Part shown: positions 29,099 to 64,000 of the stretch, one piece after another
Numbering within the stretch: position 1 is the stretch's first letter
Layout: the number at the start of each line of letters is the position of its first letter
The notes under the pieces: model-generated
What the model was told of the DNA's origin: nothing
The model's input: the letters and a program-made list of their open reading frames with translations, nothing else
Databases searched by the model: none
Made by a program: the position numbers and the translations under genes
Assembly: GCA_964560495.1 (NCBI GenBank)
Contig: CAZLMM010000024.1
Location: forward strand, 316 to 64,315
From: an uncultured Caldilineaceae bacterium
GTDB taxonomy: Bacteria; Chloroflexota; Anaerolineae; Caldilineales; Caldilineaceae
Length of the DNA stretch: 64,000 nt
Reading direction: 5' to 3'

Positions 29099-29108
29099 TC
29101 GTTCAGTA

Positions 29109-29130: not shown

Positions 29131-29163
29131 GCAATCGTTATCGTTCTCGCCTACAGAGGAATC

Positions 29164-30906: not shown

Positions 30907-30946
30907 TACAGGTGGCCTTCAATAGGGCCAGGGTATTGTCCTGCGC

Positions 30947-31090
30947 GAGATGCTTCGCTGGCGCTCCGTAGAAACTCTCGCCGGCGCCAGATGCTTCACT
31001 GGCGTAGATGCTTCACTACGTTCAGCATGACAAAGGCGGTGTCTCTTGCCCGCGCTATGCCACGCGGGGAATTGAAAACTCAGCATGACA
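30947..31090. repeat. cluster of short direct repeats (AGATGCTTC(A/G)CT x3; TCAGCATGACA x2)
   Basis: gagatgcttcgctggcg (30947..30963), cagatgcttcactggcg (30988..31004), tagatgcttcactacg (31005..31020), ttcagcatgaca (31021..31032) and ctcagcatgaca (31079..31090). Confidence 0.8.
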
Positions 31091-31139
31091 ACCATTGGGT
31101 TACTTCCGCCCACGTACACTAGGCAATTTTGGGAGGTGA

Positions 31140-32321: not shown

Positions 32322-32358
32322 ATAGGATGTATTCAAAATCAGTTACAAGTGGTCATTC

Positions 32359-32431
32359 CGTAGGAGCTTGAACGGCGGCGAAGTCCTCATTCTGTAACAG
32401 CGAGGCTTTGCCGCCGCCCTTCAAGCCCGTA
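32359..32431. repeat. interspersed palindromic element, copy C (diverged)
   Basis: gtaggagcttgaacggcggcg ... tgccgccgcccttcaagcccgtac. Same arm sequences with a different loop. Confidence 0.7.
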
Positions 32432-32539
32432 CAGCAAACTAACTTTGAACACACCAATTTGAATAGATGCCCGCGGATCAATAGAGAATCTGCGCAGATC
32501 CGCCCGATCCTGTATCGGTCAAGATGATGGAAAAACGTC

Positions 32540-32560
32540 GGTGCGGTTACGAACCGCACC
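32540..32560 (+). other. 9-bp stem hairpin of the GTGCGRTT-NNN-AAYCGCAC-CTACG family
   Basis: ggtgcggtt acg aaccgcacc followed by tacgaatttc. Confidence 0.7.
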
Positions 32561-32630
32561 TACGAATTTCACGATGTTCTTGACCAGAACAAAATCCGCC
32601 CAATCCGCGTTATCTGCGTTTTTTTAGTTT

Positions 32631-34034: not shown

Positions 34035-34129
34035 ATGACATCCACCAGGGGATCAAATTCGCAGCGATGATTTTTCAGGAGTTTGCAGAGCGAATCATGA
34101 ACGATTCACCACAATTCTGAGTTGCTGCC

Positions 34130-35512: not shown

Positions 35513-35525
35513 GAGTCGTAAACCC

Positions 35526-45039: not shown

Positions 45040-45184
45040 GGTATGATTGCTACATGTTCGCTACAGTCTTCTAACAGCGCCGTCTGTATCGTTCCTTGTG
45101 AACGACGCATGTCTCCCATGTGTTGTCCGCTTCGTTCGTTTTCATTCGTTTGTCGGCACGTTCGATTCAAAGGGGGGCACCATC

Positions 45185-46777: not shown

Positions 46778-46811
46778 CGACGGAGTAACGGCTGTGTGAG
46801 GCAGTGAGGTA

Positions 46812-46858
46812 GTAAGGGAATGAGGTGATGGGGGTCGCCCATCACCTCATTCCCTTAC
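46812..46858 (+). other. intercistronic stem-loop (21-bp perfect stem) between SBP and permease genes
   Basis: gtaagggaatgaggtgatggg (46812..46832) pairs with cccatcacctcattcccttac (46838..46858), with a 5-nt loop. Confidence 0.8.
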
Positions 46859-46896
46859 CGCGGCGCTATTCCCGTTCGCGACCAAAGAAACGACAC

Positions 46897-47838
46897 GTGG
46901 ACATCCTGATTTTTCTGCGCAAGCGACTGATCCACATGATCCCGGTGCTCTTTGGGATTCTGGTGGTCGTCTTTCTCATGATCCGGCTGATCCCCGGCGA
47001 CCCGGCGCGCATCATGTTGGGCACCCACGCCACGCCAGAGAGCGTGGCTGCGCTGCGCGCCGAGCTGGGATTGGATGCGCCGCTGTGGCAGCAATTTCTG
47101 GTGTTCATGGTCAACGTCTTGCAGGGCGACCTGGGCATATCGCTCGTCTACCGTCGCCCGGTGATCAACGTGATCTTCGAGCGGCTGCCGCCCACCCTGT
47201 TCCTCATTGCCTATGCAGCGATTTTGTCCCTGCTCATCACCATTCCCCTGGCCCTGTGGGCTGCGCTGCGCCAGAACCGAGGGCCGGATCAAGCCGTGCG
47301 GGTCGGTTCCACACTGACCCTTTCCATGCCGAGCTTCTGGCTCGGTCTCAATCTGCTCATTCTCTTTGCCGTGCGTATCCCCCTTTTTCCCGTGGCTGGC
47401 TATGGCGACAGTTTCCTGGATCATCTCTGGCATCTCTTCCTGCCATCAGTGACCATCATGCTGCTTCTGGCGCCCATGTTGATCCGCAGTCTGCGCAGCG
47501 GGCTGATCGACGTGCTGAAAGCTCCCTATGTGGAGTTTGCCCGCGCGAAAGGCATCAGTGAGCGACGAGTGCTCCAGCGCCACGTGCTACGCAACGCCAT
47601 GATCTCGACTGTAACCATCCTGGGACTGAACATCGGCTGGTTGATCGGCGGCACAGTCGTTATCGAGACGGTCTTCACCATTGCCGGCATGGGGTCGCTT
47701 ATCGTCAGCTCCATCTACGCCCGCGACTATCCTGTCATCCAGGGTGTGACATTGGTCTTTGCGCTGCTGGTCATCTCCATCAACCTGGTGACGGACGTCG
47801 TCTACGCTCTACTGGATCCGAGGGTCAGCTATGATTGA
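46897..47838 (+). CDS. peptide-type ABC transporter permease (DppB-like)
   Basis: ORF 46825..47838 with preferred GTG at 46897 ('VDILIFLRKRLIHMIPVLFG' matches the usual DppB N-terminus). Upstream codons are encoded by the intercistronic hairpin. Confidence 0.8.
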   Translation: MDILIFLRKRLIHMIPVLFGILVVVFLMIRLIPGDPARIMLGTHATPESVAALRAELGLDAPLWQQFLVFMVNVLQGDLGISLVYRRPVINVIFERLPPTLFLIAYAAILSLLITIPLALWAALRQNRGPDQAVRVGSTLTLSMPSFWLGLNLLILFAVRIPLFPVAGYGDSFLDHLWHLFLPSVTIMLLLAPMLIRSLRSGLIDVLKAPYVEFARAKGISERRVLQRHVLRNAMISTVTILGLNIGWLIGGTVVIETVFTIAGMGSLIVSSIYARDYPVIQGVTLVFALLVISINLVTDVVYALLDPRVSYD

Positions 47839-48712
47839 CGCGCCTACAGCGAGCGAACGATCCGTGGACAGGCGGGAAGGCTGGTTGGCGCGCTGGGGTG
47901 CTCCGTCTTGGTTGCGACGCACATCCTTGATCTTTGGCGCGGCCGTTCTGCTGACAATCCTGGTCGCCAGTATCTTTGCTGGGCAGATCAGCCCACATGA
48001 CCCCATCGCTCAGAATTTGTCGAACACCCTGCGACCGCCCAGCACCGAACATCCCTTCGGCACCGACAACTTCGGTCGCGATATCTTCAGCCGTGTGCTC
48101 CACGCTGCCAAGCTCGACTTGATGATCGGCGTGCTCTGCGTGCTCTTTCCCATGATCATCGGCGTGCTGCTCGGCTGTCTGGCAGGCTACCTGGGCGGCC
48201 ACACTGACACGGTGATCATGCGCACGGTGGACACCTTCACCGCTTTCCCATTCCTGGTGCTGGTGATCGCCATCATCGCCATCATGGGGCCGGGGCTGTA
48301 CAGCATGTTCGTCGCGCTGACGCTGGCGGGATGGAGCGCCTACACGCGCATCGTGCGTGGGGAAATCCTGGTGGTGAAACGAGCGGAATACATCCAGGCG
48401 GCGCGGGCGTTGGGCTATAGTCGATCGCGCATCATGTTTCGCCATGTGCTGCCCAATGTGGTCTCGCCGGCCGTCATTTTTGCCATGGCCGACATCGTAC
48501 TCGTGATCCTCTCCACCACTGCGTTGAGCTTCCTGGGCCTGGGCGTACAGCCTCCCACGCCTGAGTGGGGCAGCATGATCGCCGAAGGCCGCGTCTACAT
48601 GATGACCGCGTGGTGGCTGGTAACGCTGCCTGGCCTGGCAATCGTGGCCGTAGGTTTGGCGCTCAGCTTTTTTGGCGATGGCCTGGCCGATCTCTTGCGC
48701 ACCGAGGATTAG
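47831..48712 (+). CDS. peptide-type ABC transporter permease (DppC-like)
   Basis: 293-aa multi-TM ORF that overlaps the upstream permease gene by 8 nt. EAA-loop-like 'QAARALGYSRSRIMFRHVLPN'. Confidence 0.85.
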   Translation: MIDAPTASERSVDRREGWLARWGAPSWLRRTSLIFGAAVLLTILVASIFAGQISPHDPIAQNLSNTLRPPSTEHPFGTDNFGRDIFSRVLHAAKLDLMIGVLCVLFPMIIGVLLGCLAGYLGGHTDTVIMRTVDTFTAFPFLVLVIAIIAIMGPGLYSMFVALTLAGWSAYTRIVRGEILVVKRAEYIQAARALGYSRSRIMFRHVLPNVVSPAVIFAMADIVLVILSTTALSFLGLGVQPPTPEWGSMIAEGRVYMMTAWWLVTLPGLAIVAVGLALSFFGDGLADLLRTED

Positions 48713-48715
48713 CCG

Positions 48716-49698
48716 ATGGAGCCAATTCTGGAGGTGCGCGACCTGACTACGCAGATCGCAACCAAACGTGGGACGCTGACCGCGGTGGATGAAGTCAGTT
48801 TTTCGTTGCAGCGCGGCGAAATTCTCGGTATTGTGGGCGAAAGCGGCTGTGGTAAGAGCATGACCTGTCGCTCCATCCTCCAGCTCCTGCCTGCATCTGG
48901 CAGGGTGGTGGGGGGCGAGGCCATCTACGGCGGGCGCGACCTTCTGAAGCTCCCAATCAAGGAGTTCAACCAGTTGCGTGGTCGGGAGATTGCCATGATC
49001 TTCCAGGACCCCATGGCCGTGCTCAACCCAGTGCATCGGGTGGGAGACCAGCTGACCGAGGCCATGTTGGAGCATGGCATCGTGAAATCGAAGGGTGCAG
49101 CCAGGGCGCGCGCCATCGAGCTGCTGCGCAAAGTGGGCATTCCCGCGCCAGAAGAACGGCTGGCCGCATATCCCCATCACTTCAGCGGCGGCATGTGCCA
49201 GCGCCTGGTGATCGCCATTGCCTTGGCGTGCGAGCCGGCCATCATCCTGGCCGACGAACCGACGACTGCCCTGGATGTCACGATCCAGGATCAAATTTTG
49301 AAGCTGCTCATTGGTCTCCAACACGAGTTGGGTCTGAGCCTGCTGTTGGTGACCCATGACATGGGGGTTGTGGCGCAAACATGCCAGCGAGTGGCGGTGA
49401 TGTACGCCGGTAAGATCGTGGAGCTGGCGGACAAGGTTGCGCTCTTTACCGCGCCCCGTCATCCTTACACACGGGGCCTGCTCGACTGCGTGCCCCGCGT
49501 CCAGGAAGATGGCAACGTGCGTCCCTTGACGCCCATCCCAGGCGCGCCGCCTGATCTGGTGCAGCCGCCCAGCGGCTGCCGTTTTCACCCGCGCTGCCCA
49601 TTGGCCAGCGACGAGTGCAAACAGGGCGACTTCCCACTCCGCGAGGTGGCGCCAGGTCATTTGAGCGCGTGCATCAAGCATGAGCAGATGAGAACTGT

Positions 49699-49702
<4 letters not shown>
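48716..49702 (+). CDS. peptide-type ABC transporter ATP-binding protein (DppD/OppD-like)
   Basis: Walker A 'GESGCGKSM', signature 'FSGGMCQR', Walker B '[11 protein letters not shown]', and the C-terminal oligopeptide-type extension 'GCRFHPRCP'. Confidence 0.9.
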
Positions 49703-50808
<1,106 letters not shown>

Positions 50809-50852
50809 CCATTCACACTTTTCCCAACAAGCACTCAACAAGGAAGATCACC

Positions 50853-51527
50853 ATGGCCCACGATCCCTACTACGATCTGATCACTCTCCCCCCCGAACCG
50901 CCTTTCGAGCCACAGCGCACTGCCCTGCTGACCATCGATCTGCAATATCTGGACGCGCATCCCAGCGGCTGGATGGGGCGACTGTGTCGCGACCAGGGCA
51001 AGCCCGACCACCTCAAAGAGCGTTTTGACTTCATCCAGGATATTTTGCCCAACGTGCGTCGCCTGCAAGACGCCTGCCGCGCCCATGGCGTCGAGGTGAT
51101 TCACATTCGTGTGGCGTATCGCACGCGCGATGGGCGCGATGGCCGCCGTGCGCTCAGCGCCGATCTGGCCACCGTCACCCACATGGAGGCGCGCGATGAT
51201 GATTTTCTGGAAGAGGTCGCGCCCATTGGCGATGAGATCGTCATCGACAAGACCAGCGCCGGCACCTTCAACTCAACCTCCATCGACCAGATTCTGCGCA
51301 ACATGAACATCAATCGTCTGTGGGTGACAGGCATTGTCACCGAGGGCTGTGTGGAGATGACCGCCCGCGACGCTGCTGATCGGGGCTTCCTGGTGACGCT
51401 GGTCAGCGACGGCTGCGCCTCATCCACCCACATCGCCCATGAAGATGCGTTGCAGCGCATGGGCGACGGCGGGTTGATCAAAGTGCGCACGGTGGATGAT
51501 CTGATCGGCCAGTTGGCCGCAGCATGA
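50853..51527 (+). CDS. isochorismatase-family cysteine hydrolase
   Basis: 224-aa ORF with D/K/C triad context: 'LLTIDLQ', 'IDKTSAG' and 'VTGIVTEGCVEMTARDA'. Confidence 0.8.
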   Translation: MAHDPYYDLITLPPEPPFEPQRTALLTIDLQYLDAHPSGWMGRLCRDQGKPDHLKERFDFIQDILPNVRRLQDACRAHGVEVIHIRVAYRTRDGRDGRRALSADLATVTHMEARDDDFLEEVAPIGDEIVIDKTSAGTFNSTSIDQILRNMNINRLWVTGIVTEGCVEMTARDAADRGFLVTLVSDGCASSTHIAHEDALQRMGDGGLIKVRTVDDLIGQLAAA

Positions 51528-51531
51528 TGCG

Positions 51532-52731
51532 ATGGAACCAATGACAACGCCAACCACGCCGCCGCTCTCGCGCAAGATTCAGTCTCTGCAAGGGGGCGCC
51601 GAGACATCCTTCACACGCATGTTGCGCCTGGCAAGCCAGACGCCCAATCTGATTTCTCTGGGCCGCGGCGATCCAGACGTGGCGACGCCGCCGCACATCG
51701 TGGAGGCCGCAGTCAAGGCCATGCAAACGCGCCATGTCAACTACACGCCGCCGCCAGGGATGCCGGCGCTGCGCGAAGCCATCGCCGACAAGCTGGCGCG
51801 AGAAAACGGCCTGCGCTATGACCCGATGAGCGAAGTCCTGGTCACCTGCGGCGCGCAGGAGGCCATTTCGGTCATCATGCAGACGCTCCTTGACCCAGGG
51901 GACGAGGTGCTGCTGCCAGACCCCTTCTACACCGCCTACGAGATGGCGATTGGCCTTGCCCATGGCAAGGTGGTGCATGTGCCCACCTACGCAGAACAGG
52001 GCTTCGAGGTGCAGCCCGCGGAGATTGCGGCGCGCATCAACGAACGTACGCGCATGATCGTATTGGTCTCGCCCAATAACCCGACCGGCGGCGTGATCTC
52101 GGCAGCCAGCCTGGAAGAAATCGCCGCGCTCGCCGTTCGCCACAACCTTATCGTTGTCTCGGATGAATTGTATGAAAAGGTGATCTTCGACGGCGCGCAG
52201 GCGCCCAGCATCGCCCGCCTGCCTGGGATGCGTGAGCGCACCATCATCATCAACGGCTTTTCCAAGACCTATTGTATGACCGGTTTTCGCGTGGGCTATC
52301 TGGCCGGGCCGGCAGCGTTGATGGCAGCCCTCTACGAGCCGCACCACATCCTTACCATCTGCGCGCCCACCGCCAGCCAACACGCAGCCCTGGCCGCCTT
52401 GGCCGGCGACCAGGGCTGCGTCGATGAGATCGTCGGCGTCTTCGCCCACCGACGCCGCGCCCTGCTCGACGGCTTGCGCAGCGTCGGCGTTCCCTTTCCC
52501 CATCCGGCAGGCGCGTTCTTTGCCTTTGGCGACATCCGTGCATCCGGCATGACCTCGGCGGATTTTGCGGTGAAGGTGTTGCAGGAGGCCGGCGTGCTGG
52601 TCTTCCCGGGGACGCAGTACGGGGCGTGCGGCGAAGGCTTTCTGCGCATCTCCTATCTCGCGCAGGTTGCGAACATCGAAGTAGCGGTGGAACGGTTGGG
52701 GCGAGTCTATCACAGCGCGCGGGGAGGGTGA
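51532..52731 (+). CDS. class I/II pyridoxal-phosphate aminotransferase
   Basis: Motifs 'SPNNPTGG', 'SDELYEK' and 'NGFSKTYCMTGFRVGY'. Close paralogue of 37697..38890 and 59165..60337. Confidence 0.85.
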   Translation: MEPMTTPTTPPLSRKIQSLQGGAETSFTRMLRLASQTPNLISLGRGDPDVATPPHIVEAAVKAMQTRHVNYTPPPGMPALREAIADKLARENGLRYDPMSEVLVTCGAQEAISVIMQTLLDPGDEVLLPDPFYTAYEMAIGLAHGKVVHVPTYAEQGFEVQPAEIAARINERTRMIVLVSPNNPTGGVISAASLEEIAALAVRHNLIVVSDELYEKVIFDGAQAPSIARLPGMRERTIIINGFSKTYCMTGFRVGYLAGPAALMAALYEPHHILTICAPTASQHAALAALAGDQGCVDEIVGVFAHRRRALLDGLRSVGVPFPHPAGAFFAFGDIRASGMTSADFAVKVLQEAGVLVFPGTQYGACGEGFLRISYLAQVANIEVAVERLGRVYHSARGG

Positions 52732-52738
52732 GACTCAC

Positions 52739-54103
52739 ATGGTCATCGACTACCTGAGACAGAATCGCCAGCAAATAATCGACGACCTGCGCCAGTTCAT
52801 GCAGCAGCCGAGCGTTGCGATCCAGAAGCTGGGCATGATGGAGTGCGCCGACCTGCTCTGCCGCCAGATGAGTGCATTTGGCATGTCCCCCCGGCTGTTG
52901 CCCACGGCCGGCTATCCGGTTGTCTACAGTCGGCTACAAGGGGAATCCGACTACACGCTGCTGATCTACGGTCACTACGACGTGCAGCCGGTTGATAACC
53001 TGTGGAGTTTTGATCCCTGGGGCGCTGTGATCGACGATGGACGCATCTATGGGCGCGGCGCAGTAGACGACAAGGGCGCAGTGATGGCTGCGTTGCAAGG
53101 CGTGCGCGCCTACCTGGCCACCAATACGCCCCTGCCCGTTTCAGTGATCTTCCTCATCGAAGGCGAGGAAGAGATCGGCAGCCCCAATCTGGCGCATTTT
53201 CTGTCTGCCCATCGAAATCTGCTGCGCGCCGATGCGCTGATCAACTTCGATGACAATGTTTGGCCCGACGGACGACCACGAGTCGTGACCGGCATCGGCG
53301 GCGGCGCGCTGATTCGTATCGAGGCGCGGCGGCCGCGCGAGTTTCACGGCATGATGGCGCCGCTCATCGAGAACGCGCTCTGGCGGTTGCAAAACGCGCT
53401 CGCAACGGTGCGTGCGCCGGACGGCGCCATCACCATCGACGACTTCTTCGAGGACGTGCGACCGCCCACTGCAGAGGAGATGGCGGCCATGGCCACGCTG
53501 CCCTGGGACGGCGCGCATTTGCTGCGCGACTCTGGCCAAACGGCCTTCGTGGGCGGCGTCAGCGGACTGGATGCCCTCACTCGGCTCTACCTGACGCCGT
53601 GCTGCAATCTCGTCGGTTGGGAGGGCGGCTATGTGCGTCCCATGCAAAAGAGCGTGGTGCCCCATTTCGCCGCCGCCGAGCTTGATTTCCGCACCGTGCC
53701 CAATCAACGGGGTGAGCGCATCGTGCAGATGTTACGCGACCACCTGGATCGGCGCGGTTTCACCGACCTCAGCGTGGAGCTCCTCGTCGAGACGGACTGG
53801 TATCGCTGCGCGCCCGATAGCCCGGCCGCGACCGCCCTGGGCAATGCTATCCGCAAGACCTTTGGTGTGGAGCCGGCGCGCCAGCCGACCTATCCGGGCT
53901 TCGGCCCTGAACCCCTCTTCGCCAAAATTCTCGGCATCGACGAGCAGGCCTACAGCGGCTTTGGCCCAACGGAGGATCGCCTGCACGCGCCGGATGAGTA
54001 CATTCGCATCGAAGACTACCTGAACGGCGCGGTCTGCACAGCAAATTTGCTGGAGGAGTATGTGAAGGTGAAACGGTCGGGCAACGGGGAGTTGAGGTCG
54101 TGA
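52739..54103 (+). CDS. M20 family dipeptidase/deacylase
   Basis: Motifs 'YGHYDVQP', 'GRGAVDDKGA' and 'EGEEEIGS'. Paralogue of 32631..34034. Confidence 0.85.
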   Translation: MVIDYLRQNRQQIIDDLRQFMQQPSVAIQKLGMMECADLLCRQMSAFGMSPRLLPTAGYPVVYSRLQGESDYTLLIYGHYDVQPVDNLWSFDPWGAVIDDGRIYGRGAVDDKGAVMAALQGVRAYLATNTPLPVSVIFLIEGEEEIGSPNLAHFLSAHRNLLRADALINFDDNVWPDGRPRVVTGIGGGALIRIEARRPREFHGMMAPLIENALWRLQNALATVRAPDGAITIDDFFEDVRPPTAEEMAAMATLPWDGAHLLRDSGQTAFVGGVSGLDALTRLYLTPCCNLVGWEGGYVRPMQKSVVPHFAAAELDFRTVPNQRGERIVQMLRDHLDRRGFTDLSVELLVETDWYRCAPDSPAATALGNAIRKTFGVEPARQPTYPGFGPEPLFAKILGIDEQAYSGFGPTEDRLHAPDEYIRIEDYLNGAVCTANLLEEYVKVKRSGNGELRS

Positions 54104-54140
54104 TGCCTTGGGGGTGGTGGGGAGCGAATCCCCATTCACC

Positions 54141-54180
54141 ATTTTCCATTGACTATTTTCCATTGATTATTTTCCACTAG
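54141..54180. repeat. about 3 x 14-nt tandem repeat ATTTTCCATTGA(C/T)T, reverse-complement relative of the GTCAATGG family
   Basis: Units at 54141..54154 and 54155..54168, plus a truncated unit at 54169..54180. The reverse complement reads agtcaatggaaaat. Confidence 0.85.
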
Positions 54181-54192
54181 AAAGACACAGCG

Positions 54193-55320
54193 ATGGCATC
54201 TCTCCTGGAACGTGACAGACGCTATGCGGCCCTGCGCGCCATGATGGAGGAGCAGGGCTACCGGGCGCTGATCCTGGCGGGCAACGCCGAAGCCATGCAG
54301 CGTGGCTATGTGCGTTATGTCTCCGACTGGCGGTTATGGGGGGGCAAAGGCTTCGCCGTCTTTCCCCTGGAAGGCGACCCGATCCTGGTGCTGGGCGCCG
54401 GCTCTCAGTCTTTCTGGGCGAAGGAGGTCGGCTGGATCAATGATGTGCGGCCCACATTGAACATGGTCGCCACAGTCGGCGATGCGTTGGCCGGCCTGGG
54501 ACTGGCGACTGAGCGTATCGGTGTGGTGGGACTGGGGCAGGTGATGGTCTATGGAGATGCGCTTGCCCTGCAAGTCGCCTTGCCTGCTGCGCAGCTGGAA
54601 GACGCCGCGCCCGCCGTCGACCAGATCATGGCGATCCGCAGCGCCGAAGAAATCGCCTTGCAGACGGAGAGTTATCGCTCCGTCGCGCTTGCCCATGAAC
54701 GGCTGGAAACTGCGCTTCGACCGGGGCGCAGCGAGCGCACGATCATGGCCGAGGCCGTGGAGCTTCTGGCCGAGCAGGGTTGCCTGGATGGCATTGCTCA
54801 CCTGACGGTGGGCGTTCGCCCGTTTTTGCGGCCGCCCACGGACCGGCTCATCAGCGCCGACGATGTGGTCAAGGTTTCGTTGGAGTTCGCCGGTCCCAGC
54901 GGCTTTTGGGTCGAGTTATCCGCGGTCTACTCGTTTCGCCGCCCGACTGCGCGCGAGTTGCACTACTTCGAGACCTGCGTCCAGGCCATCGAACGCGTCC
55001 AGGCGATGCTGCGCCCAGGCGTGGAAGGTCGCGCGGTGACGCAGACCATCGAGGCGACCTTCAGCGAAGCGGGCTGGCGCGTCAGCGGGCGCGGTCTGTG
55101 GGATGGACATCTCATTGGCCTCAATGTGATCCGCCCACCCTTCGGGCTGATGGATAACACAGACCGCTTCCAGGAAAACATGGTCTTCAACGTGCACCCT
55201 GGTCTGGTGGTGGATGACGATGGCTTTGGCATTTTTGTTCAGGACAATCTGCTTGTCACACCCACCGGCGGCAAACCGCTTGACGAGTTTGCACACCGGT
55301 GGCGCATCCTTGCCGAGTGA
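54193..55320 (+). CDS. M24-fold protein (creatinase/Xaa-Pro peptidase family)
   Basis: 375-aa ORF with an N-terminal creatinase-like domain ('YRALILAGNAEA') and a C-terminal pita-bread-like domain. The metal ligands are not clearly recognisable by eye. Confidence 0.7.
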   Translation: MASLLERDRRYAALRAMMEEQGYRALILAGNAEAMQRGYVRYVSDWRLWGGKGFAVFPLEGDPILVLGAGSQSFWAKEVGWINDVRPTLNMVATVGDALAGLGLATERIGVVGLGQVMVYGDALALQVALPAAQLEDAAPAVDQIMAIRSAEEIALQTESYRSVALAHERLETALRPGRSERTIMAEAVELLAEQGCLDGIAHLTVGVRPFLRPPTDRLISADDVVKVSLEFAGPSGFWVELSAVYSFRRPTARELHYFETCVQAIERVQAMLRPGVEGRAVTQTIEATFSEAGWRVSGRGLWDGHLIGLNVIRPPFGLMDNTDRFQENMVFNVHPGLVVDDDGFGIFVQDNLLVTPTGGKPLDEFAHRWRILAE

Positions 55321-55332
55321 GGATAGGAATCT

Positions 55333-56745
55333 ATGACTAATCAGAAATTCGTGGGCATTCAGATCAGCCCCATCAGCTTTATTGACGAAGGCGCTGACGC
55401 CGTGCTCCACGCGCTGCAAGAGCGTGTGGGCGTCAACGTGCTCATGATCGGCACGGTCTCCTGGCTGGGACTCAAAGCCGGGCGCAGCATCTCCCACAAG
55501 CTGGATGGCTGGCCCGACCACGGCGTGCCCGAACCCATCGAGATGAAAGGCGGCGCCTATTTCAACCCCCACCCGGAGTACTACGCTCATACCGCGATCA
55601 AAGAGTTCCGCGCCAGAGATGAGGCGACAGCCGGCTTCGATGTGCTGGAAGCGGTCATTCCTGCCGCCAAAACACGGGGAATGCGCGTCATGCCCGAGCT
55701 CATGGAGCCGCTCTTCAAATATGCCGGCCACGGTTCGGTGAATAACGTCGCCATTGCCAACATGCCCCAATATCTGGAGGTTGATCTCTATGGCCGCGTC
55801 GGTTCGGAGCCATGCACCAACCACCCGGATTACCGGCGCTGGTGGTGGAGCATGGTCGAGGATCAATGTCGCAGCTACGCCATCGACGGCGTCATGTGGT
55901 GCAACGAGCGGCGCAGCCCCCTGGATCAGATGGTTTCTGGCCAAGCGCCCGGTTGTTTCTGCGAGCACTGCCGTCGCGAGGCCGCGGCGCGCGGCGTCGA
56001 TGTGGAATCGGCGCGCAAGGCGTTCCTGCCGGTGTGGGAATTCTTTCAGCAGGCGCGCGCCGGCGACGCCTTCGTGGATGGCGCGCTCATCGAGTTCCTG
56101 CGCATGCTCTTTGCCAACCCGGAGATCCTCATCTGGGAGCGCTTCTGGCTGGAGCGCAACAAAGATTTGGATCGGGAGATCTACGGCCAAGTCAAGTGGT
56201 GCAATCCCGATCTGGAGTTCGGCCTCAACGTCTGGAATCGCAATCACTTCAATCTCTTTCGTAAGGCCCAGTGGCCCTGGGCCGAGCAAACGCGCTACGC
56301 CGATTGGGTCAAGCCCATCACTTACCAGCACCAGGCCGGCCAGGTCTATGTGAAAGAACTGAGCGACCTGCACAAGTCGATCTTGCGCGACTTCACGCCG
56401 CCCGAACTGACGCCCATCATGTACAAGCTGCTGGGGTTGCAGGAAGCGCCCTGGGAAAAGCTGGTTGCAACAGGCATGGACCCGGACACCTATGTTTACG
56501 GCCAGTGCGCCGATGCTGTACGCGGCGTCGGCGGGAAGATCCCGGTCTACATGGGCATTGGCGTGGACGCGCCGCGCGTGCTGCCCGAACAGGCCAGGTG
56601 CACGCCCGACATCGTTTATCGCAGTGTGCTGGCGACTTATCGCGCCGGCGGCCAGGGAGTGATCTTTGCGCCGAACTATGCCAGCATGCACCTGACGAAC
56701 CTGGACGGCGCGGCGCGCGCGTTGCGTGAGTTGGGAATTGCATAG
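55333..56745 (+). CDS. uncharacterised protein with a GH42-like Cys cluster (possible TIM-barrel hydrolase)
   Basis: 470-aa ORF with coding-like composition. Cys pattern 'EPCTNHPDY', then about 46 residues, then 'GCFCEHCRRE'. I can assign no confident family. Confidence 0.6.
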   Translation: MTNQKFVGIQISPISFIDEGADAVLHALQERVGVNVLMIGTVSWLGLKAGRSISHKLDGWPDHGVPEPIEMKGGAYFNPHPEYYAHTAIKEFRARDEATAGFDVLEAVIPAAKTRGMRVMPELMEPLFKYAGHGSVNNVAIANMPQYLEVDLYGRVGSEPCTNHPDYRRWWWSMVEDQCRSYAIDGVMWCNERRSPLDQMVSGQAPGCFCEHCRREAAARGVDVESARKAFLPVWEFFQQARAGDAFVDGALIEFLRMLFANPEILIWERFWLERNKDLDREIYGQVKWCNPDLEFGLNVWNRNHFNLFRKAQWPWAEQTRYADWVKPITYQHQAGQVYVKELSDLHKSILRDFTPPELTPIMYKLLGLQEAPWEKLVATGMDPDTYVYGQCADAVRGVGGKIPVYMGIGVDAPRVLPEQARCTPDIVYRSVLATYRAGGQGVIFAPNYASMHLTNLDGAARALRELGIA

Positions 56746-56755
56746 AACGCGAATT

Positions 56756-57703
56756 ATGAAAATCTATGTTGCCGACCCGGCCATCCGCGCCGAACAGATC
56801 GAGGCCATCCGCATTCGCCTGCCCACAGATTGGTCGCTGGTTGACGCACCTGACGGCGCAGCAGCTATCTTGACCGAGAACGTGGATGTGACGCCGGCCC
56901 TACTTGCTGCCGCGGGCGACACTCTGCGCATGGTCTTTCGCCTGGACACCGGCCACGCCGCTGTACCCGCTGGGCTGACCGCGCCTGTGGTTGACCTGCC
57001 CAATACCGCGCTGGTGGGCGTGGCCGAGCACACGGTCATGCTGATCATGGCGCTAAGCCGCCATCTGCTCGCCGTCATTCGCCAGACCAACGTCCAGCAG
57101 TGGCTGCCCGAACGCAGCCAGCCTATCCTCACCGACCAGCGGCGTTACACCTACAACTGGATCGGCCTGCGAGAGTGGGGTGTGTTGTATGGCAAAACCG
57201 TGGGGTTGGTGGGGCTGGGGCTGATCGGCCGCGCTGTGGCTGTCCGGCTGCGCGGCTTCGGCATGAAGCTGCTCTACACGCAGCGTCATCGCCTCGATCC
57301 GACCGCCGAGACGCGCCTGGGCGTGCAGTGGCGCGAGTTCGATGCGTTGCTGGCTGAGAGCGACTTCGTCAGCCTGCACCATCGTTTTCAGGAAGGGCCA
57401 GATGGCAATGACAAGCACATCGGCGCACGGGAATTGGCGCTGATGAAGCCGACCGCCTATCTGATCAACACGGCGCGCGGGCGGCTGGTGGATGAAGACA
57501 CGCTGGCAGATGCGCTGCGCCGCGGCCAGATCGCCGGCGCCGGTCTGGATGTTTTTCGCTACGAACCTTTGCCGGCCGACAGCCCGCTCTTTGCTTTGGC
57601 CGGCGACAATGTGATCCTCACGCCGCATGTGGCCGGCGCACCGTTGGCCGACGCCTGGGCGATGATCGCGCGCGAGCTGATTGAACATTTGCAACACGAA
57701 TAG
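56756..57703 (+). CDS. D-isomer-specific 2-hydroxyacid dehydrogenase
   Basis: ORF 56726..57703 trimmed to ATG 56756 ('MKIYVADP'). Motifs 'GLVGLGLIG', 'NTARGRLVDEDTL', 'GAGLDVF' and 'ILTPHVAG'. Confidence 0.85.
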   Translation: MKIYVADPAIRAEQIEAIRIRLPTDWSLVDAPDGAAAILTENVDVTPALLAAAGDTLRMVFRLDTGHAAVPAGLTAPVVDLPNTALVGVAEHTVMLIMALSRHLLAVIRQTNVQQWLPERSQPILTDQRRYTYNWIGLREWGVLYGKTVGLVGLGLIGRAVAVRLRGFGMKLLYTQRHRLDPTAETRLGVQWREFDALLAESDFVSLHHRFQEGPDGNDKHIGARELALMKPTAYLINTARGRLVDEDTLADALRRGQIAGAGLDVFRYEPLPADSPLFALAGDNVILTPHVAGAPLADAWAMIARELIEHLQHE

Positions 57704-57728
57704 GAATCGATCCGAAGCAACCAGCCAT

Positions 57729-57747
57729 GTGCGATTGGGAATCGCAC
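57729..57747 (+). terminator. hairpin of the same family, possible terminator after the 2-hydroxyacid dehydrogenase gene
   Basis: gtgcgatt ggg aatcgcac followed by ctacggttttcgc. Lies 26 nt after the stop codon at 57703. Confidence 0.45.
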
Positions 57748-57779
57748 CTACGGTTTTCGCACTTTGATCATTCATTTAT

Positions 57780-57893
57780 GTATCTTCTCAATGACTGGTG
57801 GTGCGGGCATGAGGTGGGGCGGAACAACCTGTTCATAGTGAGCGGTGATTGCCTTCCGCCCTATCTCACGCCTCCCACTTATTGAGAAGATAC
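57780..57893 (+). other. nested inverted repeats in the leader of the amidohydrolase gene (candidate structured RNA or tiny MITE)
   Basis: Outer arms gtatcttctcaat (57780..57792) and attgagaagatac (57881..57893) are perfect 13-mers. Inner arms tgaggtggggcgg (57810..57822) and ccgccctatctca (57856..57868) match at 11 of 13 positions. Confidence 0.6.
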
Positions 57894-57923
57894 TCATTCA
57901 TCATCTCAAGGAGACGTCACACT

Positions 57924-59150
57924 ATGCCCGAACCACCTGCCTGGCACTATCAGAAGATCATCAAGCCCATGTTCGACGCACCCAAAGAACAGCGCATCCT
58001 GCGGGGGCGCGTGCTCACCTGTGTGGGTGACGAAGTGTTCGAGGACGGTTTTGTCGAGTTCGCCGACGGCAAGATCGTTGCCGTTGGCCCGGCCAGCGAG
58101 CTGGGCGAGCGGGCAGCCCAGGCTGTCAACACCGGCGGCGCAATCCTGCCGGGGCTGTTCAACAGCCACGCCCACCTGGCCTGGGATGGCATCCATGACC
58201 TGGCGCGCCAATCCATGGACGATGCGCCGGAGATCAGCGCGTACAAGAGCGCGGGCAATATGCTCATCTCCTTGCGTTCCGGCGTCACTACTGTGCGCGA
58301 CCTGGGCATGAACAAGACCAATTTTTTTGCCAAACAAGCGGTGGCCCAGGGCATCTTCCCCGGCCCGCGGCTGCTCATCTGCGGCGAGGCCATCATCCAG
58401 ACAGGCGGCCACACCTATTGGTGCTGCCGCGAGGCCAGCGGCGCAGACGAGATGCGTCGCGCCGTGCGCGAACAGGTGCGGGGCGGCGCCGACCTGATCA
58501 AGATCATGGCTTGTCACGACACCCTGGAATTCACCGACGAAGAGCTGGATGCGGTCATCGACGAGAGCCATCGCAACGGCCTGCCCATCACCGCTCACGC
58601 CACCTACAATGCCTGCATCGAGCGCGTGGCGCGCTTCGGCGTAGACTGCGTGGAGCATGGCGGCAGCATGAGCGACAGCACGATCCAGCTCTTGCTCGAC
58701 AAGAACATCCCCATCGTCACCACCTTTGCGCCCCTGGTCATGCAGAGCAAGCCCGAGCTGGCGCGCCAGTTCAACGTACCCGAATGGAAGATCGCCGAAC
58801 GGCAAAAGGCTGTGGGCGACCCCAGCCGTTATCAAGGGCTGATCAACGCAGCCAAAGCCGGCGTGACCATCGGCTTTGGCACCGACGCCGGCAGCCCAGT
58901 GGTCGGCCATGATGTGATTGCGCCCGAGATGGAATTCATGGTGCGACTGGGGGTGAAACGCGACAACTACGACGCCATTCGCAGCGCAACCAGCGTTGCG
59001 GCCAGGATCAACCGGCTGGAAAAGAAGTTGGGAACGCTGGAGGTTGGCAAACTGGCCGATGTCATCGTGGTCGAGGGCAACCCACTGGAGGAGATCGACG
59101 CCCTCAGCCGGGTGACGATGACTTTTCTCGAAGGTAAACGCATGGTATAG
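57924..59150 (+). CDS. amidohydrolase family metallo-hydrolase
   Basis: ORF 57849..59150 trimmed to ATG 57924 behind AAGGAG. HxH motif 'NSHAHLAWDG', plus 'ITAHA' and 'GTDAG'. Confidence 0.8.
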   Translation: MPEPPAWHYQKIIKPMFDAPKEQRILRGRVLTCVGDEVFEDGFVEFADGKIVAVGPASELGERAAQAVNTGGAILPGLFNSHAHLAWDGIHDLARQSMDDAPEISAYKSAGNMLISLRSGVTTVRDLGMNKTNFFAKQAVAQGIFPGPRLLICGEAIIQTGGHTYWCCREASGADEMRRAVREQVRGGADLIKIMACHDTLEFTDEELDAVIDESHRNGLPITAHATYNACIERVARFGVDCVEHGGSMSDSTIQLLLDKNIPIVTTFAPLVMQSKPELARQFNVPEWKIAERQKAVGDPSRYQGLINAAKAGVTIGFGTDAGSPVVGHDVIAPEMEFMVRLGVKRDNYDAIRSATSVAARINRLEKKLGTLEVGKLADVIVVEGNPLEEIDALSRVTMTFLEGKRMV

Positions 59151-59164
59151 ACGGGAGCGCCATC

Positions 59165-60337
59165 ATGAACAATTCGCCTCTGATGCAGGCGCTGGCCGGG
59201 CGCATGGTGGAGGAGGATGTTTCTTTTCGCACCAGGATGTTGGAGACCGCCGCCAGCCTGCGCGACGTGATCGCGCTGGGGCGCGGCGACCCGGATTTTC
59301 ATACGCCCCGGCATATTGTCGAGGCGGCCAAGCGCGCCATCGACCAGAATCAGCACCACTACACCCATCCCGCCGGCCTGCCCCAGCTGCGCGCAGCTAT
59401 CGCCGACGCCCTGTGTCGCGAGAACAATCTGGACTATCGCGCCGACGAGATCATCGTGACCGCGGGCGTGCAAGAGTCCATCATGTTGTGTATGTTGGCC
59501 CTGGTCAATCCGGGCGATGAAGTGTTGATCACGTCGCCGCGCTTCACCACCTATGACCAGGCAGTGGTCATGTGCGGCGGCAAGCCCGTCCCCGCGCCCA
59601 CCTTCGAGGAGCACGATTTTGCCCTCATGCCAGAAGAAATCGAGGCGCGCATCACGCCGGCCAGCAAAGCGCTGGTGCTGGTGACGCCCAACAACCCCAC
59701 CGGCGCAGTGACGCCGCCGGCGGTCATCCGCCAGATCGCCGACTTGGTCGTGCGTCACAATCTCGTGTTGATCAGCGACGAGATCTACTCGAAGCTCATC
59801 TATGAAGGCTCCGAGCATCTCTCGGTCGCTTCGCTGGCTGGCATGAAGGAGCGCGTCATCACGCTCAACGGCTTCTCCAAGTCCTACGCCATGACCGGTT
59901 GGCGCGTCGGCTATCTGGCTGCGCCGGGCGAGTTCATCCAGCGGCTGATCGAACCGCGCCACACCCTGAGCATCAACACTAATACGCCTGCCCAATATGC
60001 GGCGCTGGCTGCGCTCACCGGCCCGCAGGATGTAGTGGAGGCCATGCGCGAGCAGTACGGCGAGCGTCGCGCCTATCTAATGAAGGCGCTCAAGGAGATG
60101 GGCTTCACCTATGGTCATCCGGGCGGCGCGTTTTACATCTACACCAACGTGGCGAGCACGGGAATGCCGTCGCCGCAGTTCTGCGAGGAGCTGTTGCGCC
60201 GGGCGCAGGTGATGATCTTCCCGGGCAGCATGTTTGGCGACGACTCGGATCGGTATGTGCGCATCAGCTACTTGCAGCCCATCGAGCGCATCGAGCAGGC
60301 AGTCGAGCGTATACAGCGATTCATGGAAAGCCTATAG
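59165..60337 (+). CDS. class I/II pyridoxal-phosphate aminotransferase
   Basis: Motifs 'TPNNPTGA', 'SDEIYSK' and 'NGFSKSYAMTGWRVGY'. Confidence 0.85.
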   Translation: MNNSPLMQALAGRMVEEDVSFRTRMLETAASLRDVIALGRGDPDFHTPRHIVEAAKRAIDQNQHHYTHPAGLPQLRAAIADALCRENNLDYRADEIIVTAGVQESIMLCMLALVNPGDEVLITSPRFTTYDQAVVMCGGKPVPAPTFEEHDFALMPEEIEARITPASKALVLVTPNNPTGAVTPPAVIRQIADLVVRHNLVLISDEIYSKLIYEGSEHLSVASLAGMKERVITLNGFSKSYAMTGWRVGYLAAPGEFIQRLIEPRHTLSINTNTPAQYAALAALTGPQDVVEAMREQYGERRAYLMKALKEMGFTYGHPGGAFYIYTNVASTGMPSPQFCEELLRRAQVMIFPGSMFGDDSDRYVRISYLQPIERIEQAVERIQRFMESL

Positions 60338-60392
60338 ACAGGATGGCAGGATGGACAGGAAAAGTTGATCCTGCAAATCCTGTCATCCTGTC
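60337..60392 (+). other. imperfect long hairpin built from GNCAGGAT units after the aminotransferase gene
   Basis: gacaggatggcaggatggacagga, then aaagtt, then gatcctgcaaatcctgtcatcctgtc. The outer 9 bp gacaggatg/catcctgtc are perfect. Confidence 0.7.
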
Positions 60393-60417
60393 CAATCACT
60401 GACTACCGGTGAACTCA

Positions 60418-61476
60418 ATGAACACAACACCATTGCGTATTCTCCAGGTTGGACTGGGCGCGCGCGGGCGCATGTGGGGCGAAATCATTGACCGACGGAG
60501 CGATGTAATGCACAGCGGGCTGGTCGATGTCAATCCCCAGGCTGTGGCGGCCTTCCAGTCGACGCGGCCGGGCGTATCCGGCTTTACCAATCTGGACGAG
60601 GCGTTGGCAACCGTCCAGAGCGACGCCGTGCTGTTGGTGACGCCGCCCGAAGGTCATCTGGCGCAGGCGCGACAGATTTTCGCGGCTGGGCTGCCGCTTC
60701 TGGCGGAAAAGCCGCTGACCGTCGACCTGCCCGAGGCGGTGCAGATTGTCGAGCTGGCGCGGCGGGCAAACCTGCCACTGATGGTGGGGTTGAACTTCCG
60801 CTACTTGCCTGTCAGTCGCAAGATTCGGGAGTTGGCGCTCAACGAAACATTGGGCAGTCCAGGTTTTGGCTGCTTCACCTATCTGCGCAACCGCGACGGC
60901 AGGCTGCCTCATCTCAACAAATATCCCCTTACCATGCAGCACCCTATGATGTTGGAGCAGAGCATTCATCATCTGGATCTGATCCGCTTCTGCTATGGCC
61001 GCGAGGTGGAGCAGGTGCACTGCCGCACCTGGAATCCCGGTTGGAGTATGTATGCCCACGACAGCAATGTGAGCTGTTTGCTGACTTTGGCCGGCGGTCT
61101 CGAAGTGACGTATCTGGGCACATGGACCGGCGGCTGGAACGAACTGCAATTCCAATGGCGCACGGATTGCAGCAAGGGCGTCATTGTGCAGCGTCAATTG
61201 TTCGAGGACCTGGCTGTTGCACGCACAGGCGACGCCAGTCTCACGCCCATCGAGCTGCCGCCCTTCCGCGCTTTTTATGACGACACAGACGCACTCATGA
61301 GCGCGTTCAAGGCTCATCTCCATGACGGCGCGGCGTTGGAATGCAGCGGCGTGGATCACCTGTATACGCTGGCGCTCTGTTTTGCCGCCATCGAGAGCAG
61401 CGCCAAGGGGCGCGCCGTGCAGATGCACGAATTCTATGCGCGCCAGGGCATTGCGCCTCCCGAAACAACACGATGA
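60418..61476 (+). CDS. Gfo/Idh/MocA family oxidoreductase
   Basis: N-terminal Rossmann 'LRILQVGLGARG' and 'LAEKPLT'. Start is either GTG 60409 or ATG 60418. Confidence 0.8.
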   Translation: MNTTPLRILQVGLGARGRMWGEIIDRRSDVMHSGLVDVNPQAVAAFQSTRPGVSGFTNLDEALATVQSDAVLLVTPPEGHLAQARQIFAAGLPLLAEKPLTVDLPEAVQIVELARRANLPLMVGLNFRYLPVSRKIRELALNETLGSPGFGCFTYLRNRDGRLPHLNKYPLTMQHPMMLEQSIHHLDLIRFCYGREVEQVHCRTWNPGWSMYAHDSNVSCLLTLAGGLEVTYLGTWTGGWNELQFQWRTDCSKGVIVQRQLFEDLAVARTGDASLTPIELPPFRAFYDDTDALMSAFKAHLHDGAALECSGVDHLYTLALCFAAIESSAKGRAVQMHEFYARQGIAPPETTR

Positions 61477-61482
61477 AGAGTT

Positions 61483-61527
61483 GACAAGATGATAATCCAT
61501 CCTGTGAATCCTGTCATCCTGTCTGTC
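61483..61527 (+). other. related CAGGAT/ATCCTGT repeat hairpin
   Basis: gacaagatg ... atccatcctgtgaatcctgtcatcctgtctgtc. Shares 'aatcctgtcatcctgtc' with 60376..60392. Confidence 0.65.
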
Positions 61528-61541
61528 AATATCCTACGCCG

Positions 61542-62513
61542 ATGAAAATACTTGTCACAGGCGGTTTGGGTTTCGTTGGCGTCAACGTGGTGAGAGCATT
61601 GGCTGACCACGAGGGCGTCCAGGTGATCGCCGCAGACATGCAGCCGTGGGATGCAGCCATCGAGCGTTTCCTTGCGCCGGTGAAAACGCGCATCCGCTAT
61701 TGTCGGCTGGATGTGCGCGATGCTGATTCGTTCGCCGGGCTGGTTGCCGACGAGGGCGTTACGCACGTGATCCACGCCGCCGCCGTCACTGTCAACGACG
61801 AACAGGAGTGCACGCGCGCCGCCGAAGTGGTGGGTGTGAACCTGGGCGGCGCCATCAATGTGCTCAATTCTGCGCTGCGGTGCGACCATGTCGAGCGTGT
61901 GCTGATGTTGAGCAGCAGCGGCGTCTATGGCGCACCCAAACGCCCACCCGGCAGAGCACAACGTGAAGGCGGCGCGCTCGATCTCACCAATCTCTACGCC
62001 ATCACCAAATACAGCGCCGAGCTACTTGCCGCCCGCTATGGCCGGCTGACCGGCAAGCCAATGGCCTCGCTGCGTCTTTCCGCGGTCTATGGACCCATGG
62101 AGCGACTATCGGCCAGCCGGCCAAACGTCAGCGCAATCCAGCGGCTCTTTTGCGCGCTGTGCGACCAGCGCCCCCTGCGGCTGGCCGGCCCTGCCGTGAA
62201 GCGTGACTGGACCTACGCCGCCGACATTGGCGCGGCGGCTTGGGCGATGCTCCATGCGCCCCTCTGGCGACACAACGTCTACAATGTAAGCTGCGGCACA
62301 GCGCTGCGCTTCGACGAGGCAGCGGCGGCGTTTAGCGAGAGGGGATTAGCGGTGACATGGGTGGACGACCCCGACCAGGCTGATGTGGCGATGCGTCCGC
62401 AGCAGGCGCGCGTCGCGTTGGATATCGGTCGCATTCAGCGAGATGCAGGCTTCCGGCCAGCCTTCTCGCTTGGCGCAAGCATCGACGATTGGCTGGCATG
62501 GAATTCGGGCTGA
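61542..62513 (+). CDS. NAD-dependent epimerase/dehydratase (extended SDR)
   Basis: Motifs '[16 protein letters not shown]' and YxxxK in 'YAITKYSAE'. Confidence 0.8.
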
Positions 62514-64000
62514 TAGGATTTTTCCAGACTGTCGCCTAACGCCGCCGCCAGGGACGCCACATTGGGCGGCAGATGGATGTTGCGATGCCCTCCCTCCACC
62601 GTGTGGACAGTGACGCCGCCCAGCGCCAATGCGCCCCACCCGCGCTGGGGATCGAGCGAGCCGGTGAGCGCGCTGGTGATGGTGCGCCCACGTGCGGCAA
62701 AGAACGTCACTGTCCCTCTGTAGGGTTGTGGACGATATGCGCGAATGGCGGCCAGATGGATTTCCATGAGCCGGCGTTGGTGGTCGGGCACGAAGACCGC
62801 GTCGTCGGCCAGCACATCACGGATATCCACGGGCGTCGCTTTCTGGGCTCCGTGGATAAGCCGCCAACGCCAACGATGCATTTTGCGCTGGGCGCGCCAG
62901 ACAATCTCTTGCGCGCCCAGCCGCCAATAATCTTCCAACCAGTAGGGTAGATTGCGCCAGATGGCGAGCAGGCGTTGCGCATCCAGACGGCGCGCGCTGC
63001 GGCGACGTGCGCCTGGCGCGTATCCTTCCATGATTGCCACCAGCGCCGCCTGTTCTCCCTGGGCTTCCAGTTGCCGCGCCATCTCGAAGGCAACCACGCC
63101 GCCAAAACAATAGCCCCCCATGCGGTAGGGGCCATGGGGCTGCACGCTGCGCATGGCGGCGATGTAGCGCGTCGCCATGTCCTCCACGCGCAGGTCCGGG
63201 GCTTCATTGCCATCCAGACCGGCAGCCTGCAGGCCGTAAAATGGCTGATCTGGCCCTAACAGCCGCGCCAGATCGACATAGCCCACCACGCCGCCGCCAA
63301 AGCCGTGGACGCAGAAGAAGGGCGGGCGAACGCCACTTGTCTGGATTGCCACCAGTGTAGGCCACTCCTGCGGCGCGTCGGGTTGCGCAAGATGGGGCGC
63401 AAGTTCAGCGATGGTCTGGCTGCGAAAGAGCAGGGCCAGCGGCAAACGCACGCCAAACTCATCTTCAATGCGGGCGAAGAGACGCACGGCCAGCAATGAA
63501 TGACCGCCCAGATCGAAAAAACTCTCGTGGATGCTGACGCTGGGCAGGCCAAGCACTTCGGCCCAGAGGGCGGCCAGCTTTTCCTCGACGGGAGTCGTCG
63601 GCGCGCTCACTGCCGCCGTGGATCGTTCGGCGTCGGGCAGTGGCAAGGCGCGACGGTTCACCTTGCCGTTGGCTGTCAGGGGCAGCGATTCGAGCTGAAT
63701 GTAGACAGCCGGCGTCATGTAGTCGGGCAGGGAAGCGCGCAGAAAGTTACGTAGATCGCTACTGGTTGGCGCGGACGGTCTGGCGGATGTGAAATAGGCG
63801 ACCAAGCGCATGTCGCCCGTCGCATCTGGCCGGGCGACGACCGCGCAGGCGCTCACATTGGGGTGCAGAGCCAGCGTCGCTTCGATTTCGCCCGGTTCCA
63901 CACGATAACCGCGTACCTTCACCTGGTCGTCCACGCGCCCTATAAACTCTAGCGCGCCGTCCCAACGCCAGCGCGCCAGATCGCCAGTGCGATAGATGCG
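62435..64000 (-). CDS. non-ribosomal peptide synthetase, C-terminal part (end of A domain, T, TE); 5' end lies beyond the window
   Basis: The frame stays open to 64000 and reads '[31 protein letters not shown]' (A8-like). A10-like 'NGKVNRRAL'; carrier motif '[12 protein letters not shown]' with Ser codon at 63497..63499. TE region has '[10 protein letters not shown]', 'GGYCFGG' and 'GGH'. Confidence 0.9.

Follow-up and report, generated by a model that had tools for sequence, protein, structure and literature searches.

A nonribosomal peptide synthetase gene end and its domains

We examined a stretch of 64,000 nucleotides from an uncultured Caldilineaceae bacterium (contig CAZLMM010000024.1, positions 316 to 64,315; hereafter the window), at the end of which a nonribosomal peptide synthetase (NRPS) gene runs past the last base. 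Translation of 62400-64000 revealed a single open frame on the minus strand, which extends from base 64000 to a stop codon at 62435-62437 and comprises 521 codons. A first-pass annotation had described this frame, open to the window edge, as an NRPS end module made up of part of an adenylation (A) domain, a peptidyl carrier domain (PCP, written T in the domain orders below) and a thioesterase (TE) with an unusual cysteine. Translation and Pfam searches confirmed the end module, and the motifs named in that annotation (A8, A10, GGHSL, GYCFG and GGH) were all verified by their coordinates. The features of the gene end are listed here, with residues numbered along the visible fragment.

62435-64000, minus strand: 3' part of the NRPS gene, placed by its open frame, its Pfam domains and its colinearity with the relative P0121; the 5' part lies past the window edge
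63626-64000, minus strand: C-terminal subdomain of the adenylation domain, about residues 1-125 (Pfam AMP-binding_C and motif coordinates)
63980-63994, minus strand: A8 motif, YRTGD (motif coordinates)
63644-63670, minus strand: A10 motif, NGKVNRRAL (motif coordinates)
63392-63583, minus strand: peptidyl carrier domain, residues 140-203 (Pfam PP-binding)
63494-63508, minus strand: carrier motif, GGHSL (motif coordinates)
63497-63499, minus strand: Ser168 of GGHSL, the phosphopantetheine-attachment site (motif coordinates)
62573-63322, minus strand: type I thioesterase, Pfam span residues 227-476 (PF00975, AlphaFold2 model and Foldseek)
63107-63109, minus strand: codon TGT for Cys298, the nucleophile in GGYCFGG (structure alignments and homologue columns)
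63026-63028, minus strand: Glu325, the probable triad acid, at position I right after strand beta6 (AIMEGYAP; alignment and model)
62585-62587, minus strand: His472, the histidine of the triad (EGGHRN), in a loop that follows the last core strand (alignment and model)
62741-63016, minus strand: long lid insertion, about residues 329-420 (model helix TE134-175 and a clade motif)

Each of the three domains matched its Pfam profile. AMP-binding_C was found at residues 38-113 (E 1.2e-13), PP-binding covered profile positions 1-66 of 67 (E 5.2e-19), and PF00975 covered profile positions 2-211 of 226 with a score of 102.5 bits against a cut-off of 26.4 (E 5.3e-29). In NCBIfam, the fragment matched the C-terminal portions of EntF and of other NRPS models. 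The TE is fused straight behind the carrier domain at the C-terminal end of the module, and its structured part spans about residues 214-495, with the stop following residue 521. The visible part of the gene is intact and free of frameshifts. Of the residues that confer A-domain specificity, only the A10 Lys falls inside the window, and the A4-A5 region lies beyond base 64000.

A cysteine thioesterase and its clade

The first-pass annotation had placed a cysteine at the nucleophile position of the TE, and this was borne out by comparison with solved structures and by a structure model. In phmmer alignments, Cys298 falls on the catalytic Ser of Skyxy-TE (7crn, GWSLG) and on the Ala of 7dxo (GWALG), an entry titled as a mutant of 7crn that differs from it within the aligned stretch in this column alone. 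In NocB (GGWSFGG) and GbnD6 (GGYSQGG) its counterpart is Ser, and in AB3403 (GGWCFGG) it is Cys. We modelled residues 208-521 with AlphaFold2 on the basis of a 90-sequence alignment (pLDDT 90.2, pTM 0.88); the model has the strand and helix order of an alpha/beta-hydrolase and puts Cys298 at the nucleophile elbow, between strand TE85-90 and helix TE92-106. Given that all of the closest relatives carry Cys in this column as well, we conclude that Cys298 is not a sequencing slip. An independent contig of the Joint Genome Institute (JGI; L017) is 100% identical to window positions 61454-62846 and ends before the Cys codon.

The histidine of the C-terminal GGH, which had been proposed as the partner of this cysteine, is supported both by alignment and by its position in the model. 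His472 aligns with the GAH histidine of NocB-TE and sits in the loop behind the last core strand (TE256-261), and its column holds His in 97 of the 121 sequences of our first homologue set, A1, which consists of the 120 best word-indexed homologues and the query. For the triad acid, alignment and model both point to Glu325. This residue stands immediately after strand TE111-117 in the model and aligns with the Asp of AB3403 (IMEGYAP versus VMIDTRAP), and its column is acidic in 111 of the 121 sequences (D in 82 and E in 29, with N in another 9). We infer that Cys298, His472 and Glu325 form a triad in the ordinary EntF/AB3403-type arrangement, with Glu in place of the usual Asp.

A second conserved acid, Asp450 (62651-62653), lies in the motif DPxxGW in the beta7-beta8 loop and is present in 99 of the 121 sequences. 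In the model it sits 14 residues past beta7, and the residues right after that strand are Arg-Gly-Arg-Thr. An Asp shortly before GW is also apparent, from a local alignment, in the corresponding region of NocB-TE. Because NocB-TE appears to carry D..GW and yet uses no position-II acid, that is, no acid in the loop after beta7, we read Asp450 as probably structural and not as the triad acid.

The fold comparison agreed with the sequence comparison in the enzymes it brought up. Foldseek gave a probability of 1.00 against many TE structures, and Skyxy-TE, AB3403, FAS-TE, NocB-TE, Pks13-TE and EntF were matched at E values from 1e-17 to 1e-13. By sequence and fold, the nearest solved structures were Skyxy-TE, AB3403, NocB-TE, animal FAS-TE, GbnD6-TE, EntF-TE, Pks13-TE and Vlm2-TE. 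The lid of the window TE includes a predicted 42-residue helix rich in Arg and Trp (TE134-175), and it carries a clade motif (NLPYW) that is common to P0001, P0121 and L002.

The first-pass annotation had also called cysteine TEs rare. This holds for TEs that have been studied, of which about 2% use Cys (PMC13288461), and it does not hold for the clade around the window TE. In A1, the nucleophile column contained Cys in 73 sequences, Ser in 46 and Gly in 2. Ser was paired with Asp in 46 of 46 cases, and Cys was paired with Glu, Asp or Asn; all relatives above about 47% TE identity had Cys, with a Glu partner in nearly all. We then turned to an exhaustive phmmer search of 1.84 billion representatives clustered at 50% identity, which returned 38,969 matches at E <= 1e-3, of which 4,669 reached E <= 1e-30. 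The nucleophile column held Cys in 114 of the best 150 representatives and Ser in 32, and the most frequent triad was Cys/Glu/His (n = 70). Named close matches were few, and all were Chloroflexota. Judged by sequence, the clade of the window TE is large, environmental and uncharacterised, and its active sites usually combine Cys with Glu.

Some relatives depart from this pattern in the active site or in the number of TEs. In a group of 860-aa A-T-TE proteins (P0056, P0064, P0065, P0073 and others), Cys is present and the His column holds Phe. A TE internal to an NRPS is unusual, and P0122, P0124, P0126 and P0154 each have two TE elbows in one polypeptide, an internal one after the first module and a C-terminal one. 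Both elbows read GGYCFGG in three of these proteins, and the second elbow of P0154 reads GGYSFGG. Pfam confirmed two TE stretches in P0124 and P0126; these polypeptides are possibly gene-calling fusions.

Extent of the synthetase and its surroundings

The fragment is colinear, at 57% identity, with residues 883-1377 of P0121, a protein of 1395 aa with the order C-A-T-TE (C, condensation domain), and we therefore expect about 880 further residues beyond the window edge. The P0121 locus (L018) is intact and contains ABC transporter genes followed by genes for A-T (605 aa), C-A-T (1166 aa) and C-A-T-TE proteins, a gene set that was seen in three independent metagenome samples. The other close relatives with genomic context are organised as follows.

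L001: C; A-T; A-T; TubC_N-dock-C-A-T-TE
L002, a metagenome-assembled genome (MAG) of Candidatus Promineifilaceae: ...C-A-T; C-A-T-TE
L008: C-A-T-C-A-T-C-A-T-TE
L010: C-A-T-TE and a phosphopantetheinyl transferase (PPTase)
L016: C-A-(T)-C-A-T-TE

With P0121 included, a C domain precedes the terminal A domain in six of six close relatives. Further NRPS genes or modules stand upstream in five of the six (L001, L002, L008, L016 and L018), and L010 shows a single module only. The NRPSs ended by close relatives have up to three visible modules, and a length of about 1,300-1,450 aa is common among the top representatives. Several of these loci are broken: the contig names of L008 and L016 indicate about 2-3x coverage, and their fragmentation is probably an assembly error; breaks occur in L001, L002 and L010 too. 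By analogy with these relatives, the complete window protein most likely has the order C-A-T-TE and a length of about 1,390 aa, and would form the end of a small NRPS with one to three modules.

Searches for the rest of the locus returned relatives of the gene at moderate identity. Protein-pattern scans found no contig extension among GTDB genome contigs, where the best match had 53% identity (in a Candidatus Promineifilaceae MAG), or among metagenome contigs, where the best match had 52%. An exact 41-mer (63931-63971) had no match among metagenome contigs, and an upstream walk by homology search with residues 1-210 gave a best match of merely 59%. The sole fragment with 100% identity, P0143, lies on a 1,393-bp JGI contig that ends inside the TE. 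Neither tRNA genes nor taxonomic marker genes were found in the parts of the window that were scanned. Since only the last third of the gene is in the window, no product can be predicted for it.

We also compared the terminal A domains of the relatives, whose specificity codes were extracted by anchoring on motifs and are approximate. The codes were heterogeneous: we take that of P0121 to be Pro-like and those of others to be Val-, Leu- and beta-Ala-like. The comparison suggests that no single C-terminal residue is shared across the window clade. In L002 (3362-6331), P0123, P0128 and P0152, the terminal A domain carries the A4 motif F-V-D-S-x-W-E; when the motif is aligned on the A4 Trp, code positions 235 and 236 fall on Val and Asp, respectively. 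The resulting VDW is presumably that of a beta-alanine-type specificity code.

Two A-T-TE relatives with a Cys TE stand in other kinds of loci. P0011 (L006, 7975-10683) lies in a sugar-nucleotide/polysaccharide locus, where its neighbours are GT2, pyruvyl transferase, epimerase, RmlC-like, DUF4910, Aminotran_3, NTP_transferase and PIG-L genes. P0018 (L009, 1742-4453) lies between a GFO_IDH_MocA gene and an MbtH gene.

Within the window, all genes from 45047 to 62513 are on the plus strand and are convergent with the NRPS gene. They form a block with the following order.

45047-62513, plus strand, first: an SBP_bac_5 binding protein, two permeases and two oligo_HPY ATPases (an Opp/Dpp-type importer)
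45047-62513, plus strand, second: a class I/II aminotransferase, then M20 and M24 peptidases
45047-62513, plus strand, third: a 470-aa open reading frame (ORF; 55333-56745) without a Pfam match
45047-62513, plus strand, fourth: a D-2-hydroxyacid dehydrogenase, then an amidohydrolase
45047-62513, plus strand, fifth: a second class I/II aminotransferase, then a GFO_IDH_MocA oxidoreductase
61542-62513, plus strand, sixth and last in the block: an NAD-dependent epimerase/dehydratase

The first-pass annotation had raised the possibility that the epimerase, the Gfo/Idh/MocA oxidoreductase and the aminotransferase supply precursors to the NRPS or tailor its product. We rejected this proposal: the genes run towards the NRPS gene on the other strand, they are part of a block for Opp/Dpp-type uptake and peptide catabolism, and none of the block genes recurs beside the close relatives L001, L008, L010, L016 and L018. 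The aminotransferase is of class I/II and is not a sugar aminotransferase. We therefore read the plus-strand block as a separate and unrelated peptide-uptake and catabolism locus. A horizontally acquired island was considered as well and set aside, as the GC content is flat (0.60-0.64) across the last 24 kb.

The 3' ends of the NRPS gene and the epimerase/dehydratase gene overlap by 79 nt (62435-62513). The same overlap is present on the JGI contig L017 (sample 3300043267), and the last 26 or so NRPS residues, which correspond roughly to the overlap, fall outside the region aligned with P0121. Farther away, a second set of peptide-uptake and catabolism genes (SBP_bac_5, M20 peptidase, amidohydrolase and others) occupies 27244-35662, where an ORF of 534 aa (29083-30687) has no Pfam match. 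The largest ORF of the window encodes 2046 aa and lies at 6011-12151 on the minus strand.

Release chemistry and comparison with known thioesterases

Weighing these results together, we consider it probable that the open frame is the 3' end of an NRPS gene whose TE combines a position-I Cys/His/Glu triad with a long lid and belongs to an uncharacterised environmental clade, that the whole protein is the C-A-T-TE component of a small NRPS, that the TE is not of the ObiF/SulM type, and that the neighbouring genes are separate. Several points weigh against this interpretation. The 5' two-thirds of the gene lie past the window, so that architecture and module count are taken from relatives with 49-73% identity in the TE domain, and at 44-47% identity the relatives are A-T-TE proteins of 860-912 aa that stand alone. 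In addition, Asp450 is a second candidate, alongside Glu325, for the contact with His472.

In the mechanism that we propose, the phosphopantetheine arm on Ser168 would bring the finished short peptide to the TE, where His472 and Glu325 would activate Cys298, and transthioesterification would then yield an S-acyl enzyme. Release could follow through water or through an intramolecular or external nucleophile. These steps draw on general TE chemistry (PMC10510592, PMC6668435), and Cys TEs give S-acyl intermediates (PMC6668435). Given a thioester intermediate and a long lid that probably keeps water out, cyclisation or aminolysis would be no worse a fit than hydrolysis.

Cys TEs are of interest to natural-product enzymologists; their thioester acyl-enzyme favours both cyclisation and unusual release chemistry. 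To our knowledge, only a handful of Cys-dependent TEs have been studied (ObiF, SulM, MacB/PmxB and AB3403). The window adds one more, from a sizeable uncharacterised clade: the Cys is carried by at least about 110 clusters at 50% identity, mostly with Glu rather than Asp, and the clade is found in compact NRPSs of one to three modules. We regard the clade as worth following in genome mining or biocatalyst discovery, and not as a new principle.

A different function for the whole clade is conceivable, although we think it unlikely. The Cys/His/Glu TEs might act as thioester-preserving transacylases that pass the peptide from Cys to another thiol, to an amine or to a carrier. The features that led us to this idea are the long lid rich in Arg and Trp, the NLPYW motif and the occurrence of the TE twice per polypeptide in some relatives. 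If it were true, these enzymes would follow a hand-over or release logic that has not yet been described for NRPS TE domains.

Somewhat less credible still is the idea that the window gene encodes a stand-alone A-T-TE protein of about 900 aa without a C domain, which would load one amino acid and pass it from Cys to an external acceptor, perhaps in concert with the oxidoreductase and epimerase next to it. An A domain does form the very start of many relatives of 860-912 aa, and the stand-alone relatives may aminoacylate a non-peptide acceptor; the sugar-nucleotide/polysaccharide setting of P0011 and the GFO_IDH_MocA and MbtH genes adjoining P0018 are in keeping with this idea, as is the presence of GFO_IDH_MocA and epimerase genes next to the NRPS gene of the window. 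However, the A-T-TE proteins are just 44-47% identical to the fragment, whereas a C domain is present in all six relatives that have known context and 49-73% TE-domain identity, and the GFO_IDH_MocA and epimerase genes of the window converge on the NRPS gene from the other strand and continue the peptide-catabolism block. That the gene is a decayed remnant or pseudogene without a working NRPS upstream is very improbable, for although the upstream part is outside our view and several relatives look fragmented, the 521 codons are open, each of the three domains covers almost the whole of its profile and keeps its catalytic residues, the fragmented L008 and L016 have coverage consistent with assembly error, and the P0121 locus is intact in three samples.

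This leaves the kind of release that the first-pass annotation had associated with cysteine TEs, in which a C-terminal beta-hydroxy or beta-amino residue, bound as a Cys thioester to an ObiF/SulM-type enzyme, is cyclised to a beta-lactone or beta-lactam. We hold such a role for the window TE to be highly unlikely. The window TE does share a Cys nucleophile, and with it an expected S-acyl-enzyme, with ObiF1-TE (obafluorin beta-lactone) and SulM-TE (sulfazecin beta-lactam); its long lid and the undefined specificity of the terminal A domain of its gene would also be compatible with a cyclising TE of this type. However, the terminal A-domain codes of the relatives, as approximately extracted and compared with reference codes, appear Pro-, Val-, Leu- or beta-Ala-like and not Ser-, Thr- or 2,3-diaminopropionate (Dap)-like, and L018 is without transaldolase or Dap genes. 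A search of PDB sequences matched neither ObiF nor SulM to the window TE, even at E <= 10, and neither was among its 50 best fold matches.

The active sites differ as well. In ObiF and SulM, the Cys is combined with a triad Asp that has shifted to position II, in the loop that follows beta7. The usual acid site after beta6 is occupied by Gly in ObiF1, and the elbow of SulM reads Gln-Cys-Asn and its pocket is Arg-rich (PMC11298585, PMC6668435). The acid of these enzymes thus follows beta7, with none after beta6, whereas the window TE has Glu325 after beta6, in the column that is acidic throughout most of A1, and its elbow is Tyr-Cys-Phe. Because of this post-beta6 acid and this elbow, we assign the window TE to the AB3403/EntF arrangement and not to the ObiF/SulM type, and the proposed link to beta-lactone or beta-lactam formation is not sustained. 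Macrolactamisation is also carried out by Cys TEs such as MacB-TE, and a Cys nucleophile therefore need not point to a four-membered ring (PMC13288461).

MacB-TE and PmxB-TE (macolacin and polymyxin), which we compared by their published description, are macrolactamising enzymes with a Cys/His/acid triad in which the acid follows the nucleophile by 27 residues (Cys89/Asp116), the same spacing as between Cys298 and Glu325 in the window TE. They differ in having Asp instead of Glu and in cyclising the lipodecapeptides of large assembly lines. Skyxy-TE (skyllamycin, PDB 7CRN/7DXO) and NocB-TE (nocardicin, PDB 6OJC/6OJD) were the best or near-best matches by both sequence and fold, and they have a canonical position-I triad, as the window TE does. 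Unlike it, they use a Ser nucleophile, and they are bifunctional, epimerising enzymes that act on longer peptides.

The closest correspondence is with AB3403 (ABBFA_003403 of Acinetobacter baumannii, PDB 4ZXH/4ZXI), in which Cys is combined with Asp in the usual post-beta6 place (PMC11298585). It shares the Cys of GG(W/Y)CFGG and the position-I acid with the window TE, and it ranked second among distinct proteins, with a sequence E value of 6.5e-23 (after 7crn and its mutant 7dxo) and a fold E value of 1.2e-15. Its single-module C-A-T-TE organisation agrees in size with most close relatives of the window protein. The two differ in that AB3403 has Asp for Glu, a different lid and a proteobacterial host, and the identity over the whole TE in the fold alignment is about 24%. 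Since AB3403 has itself been described as uncharacterised, we transfer no function from it (PMC11298585). Cys TEs at the ends of NRPSs are known, and the window TE is a further member of this group, in a Cys/Glu/His subclade whose nearest solved relative is AB3403.

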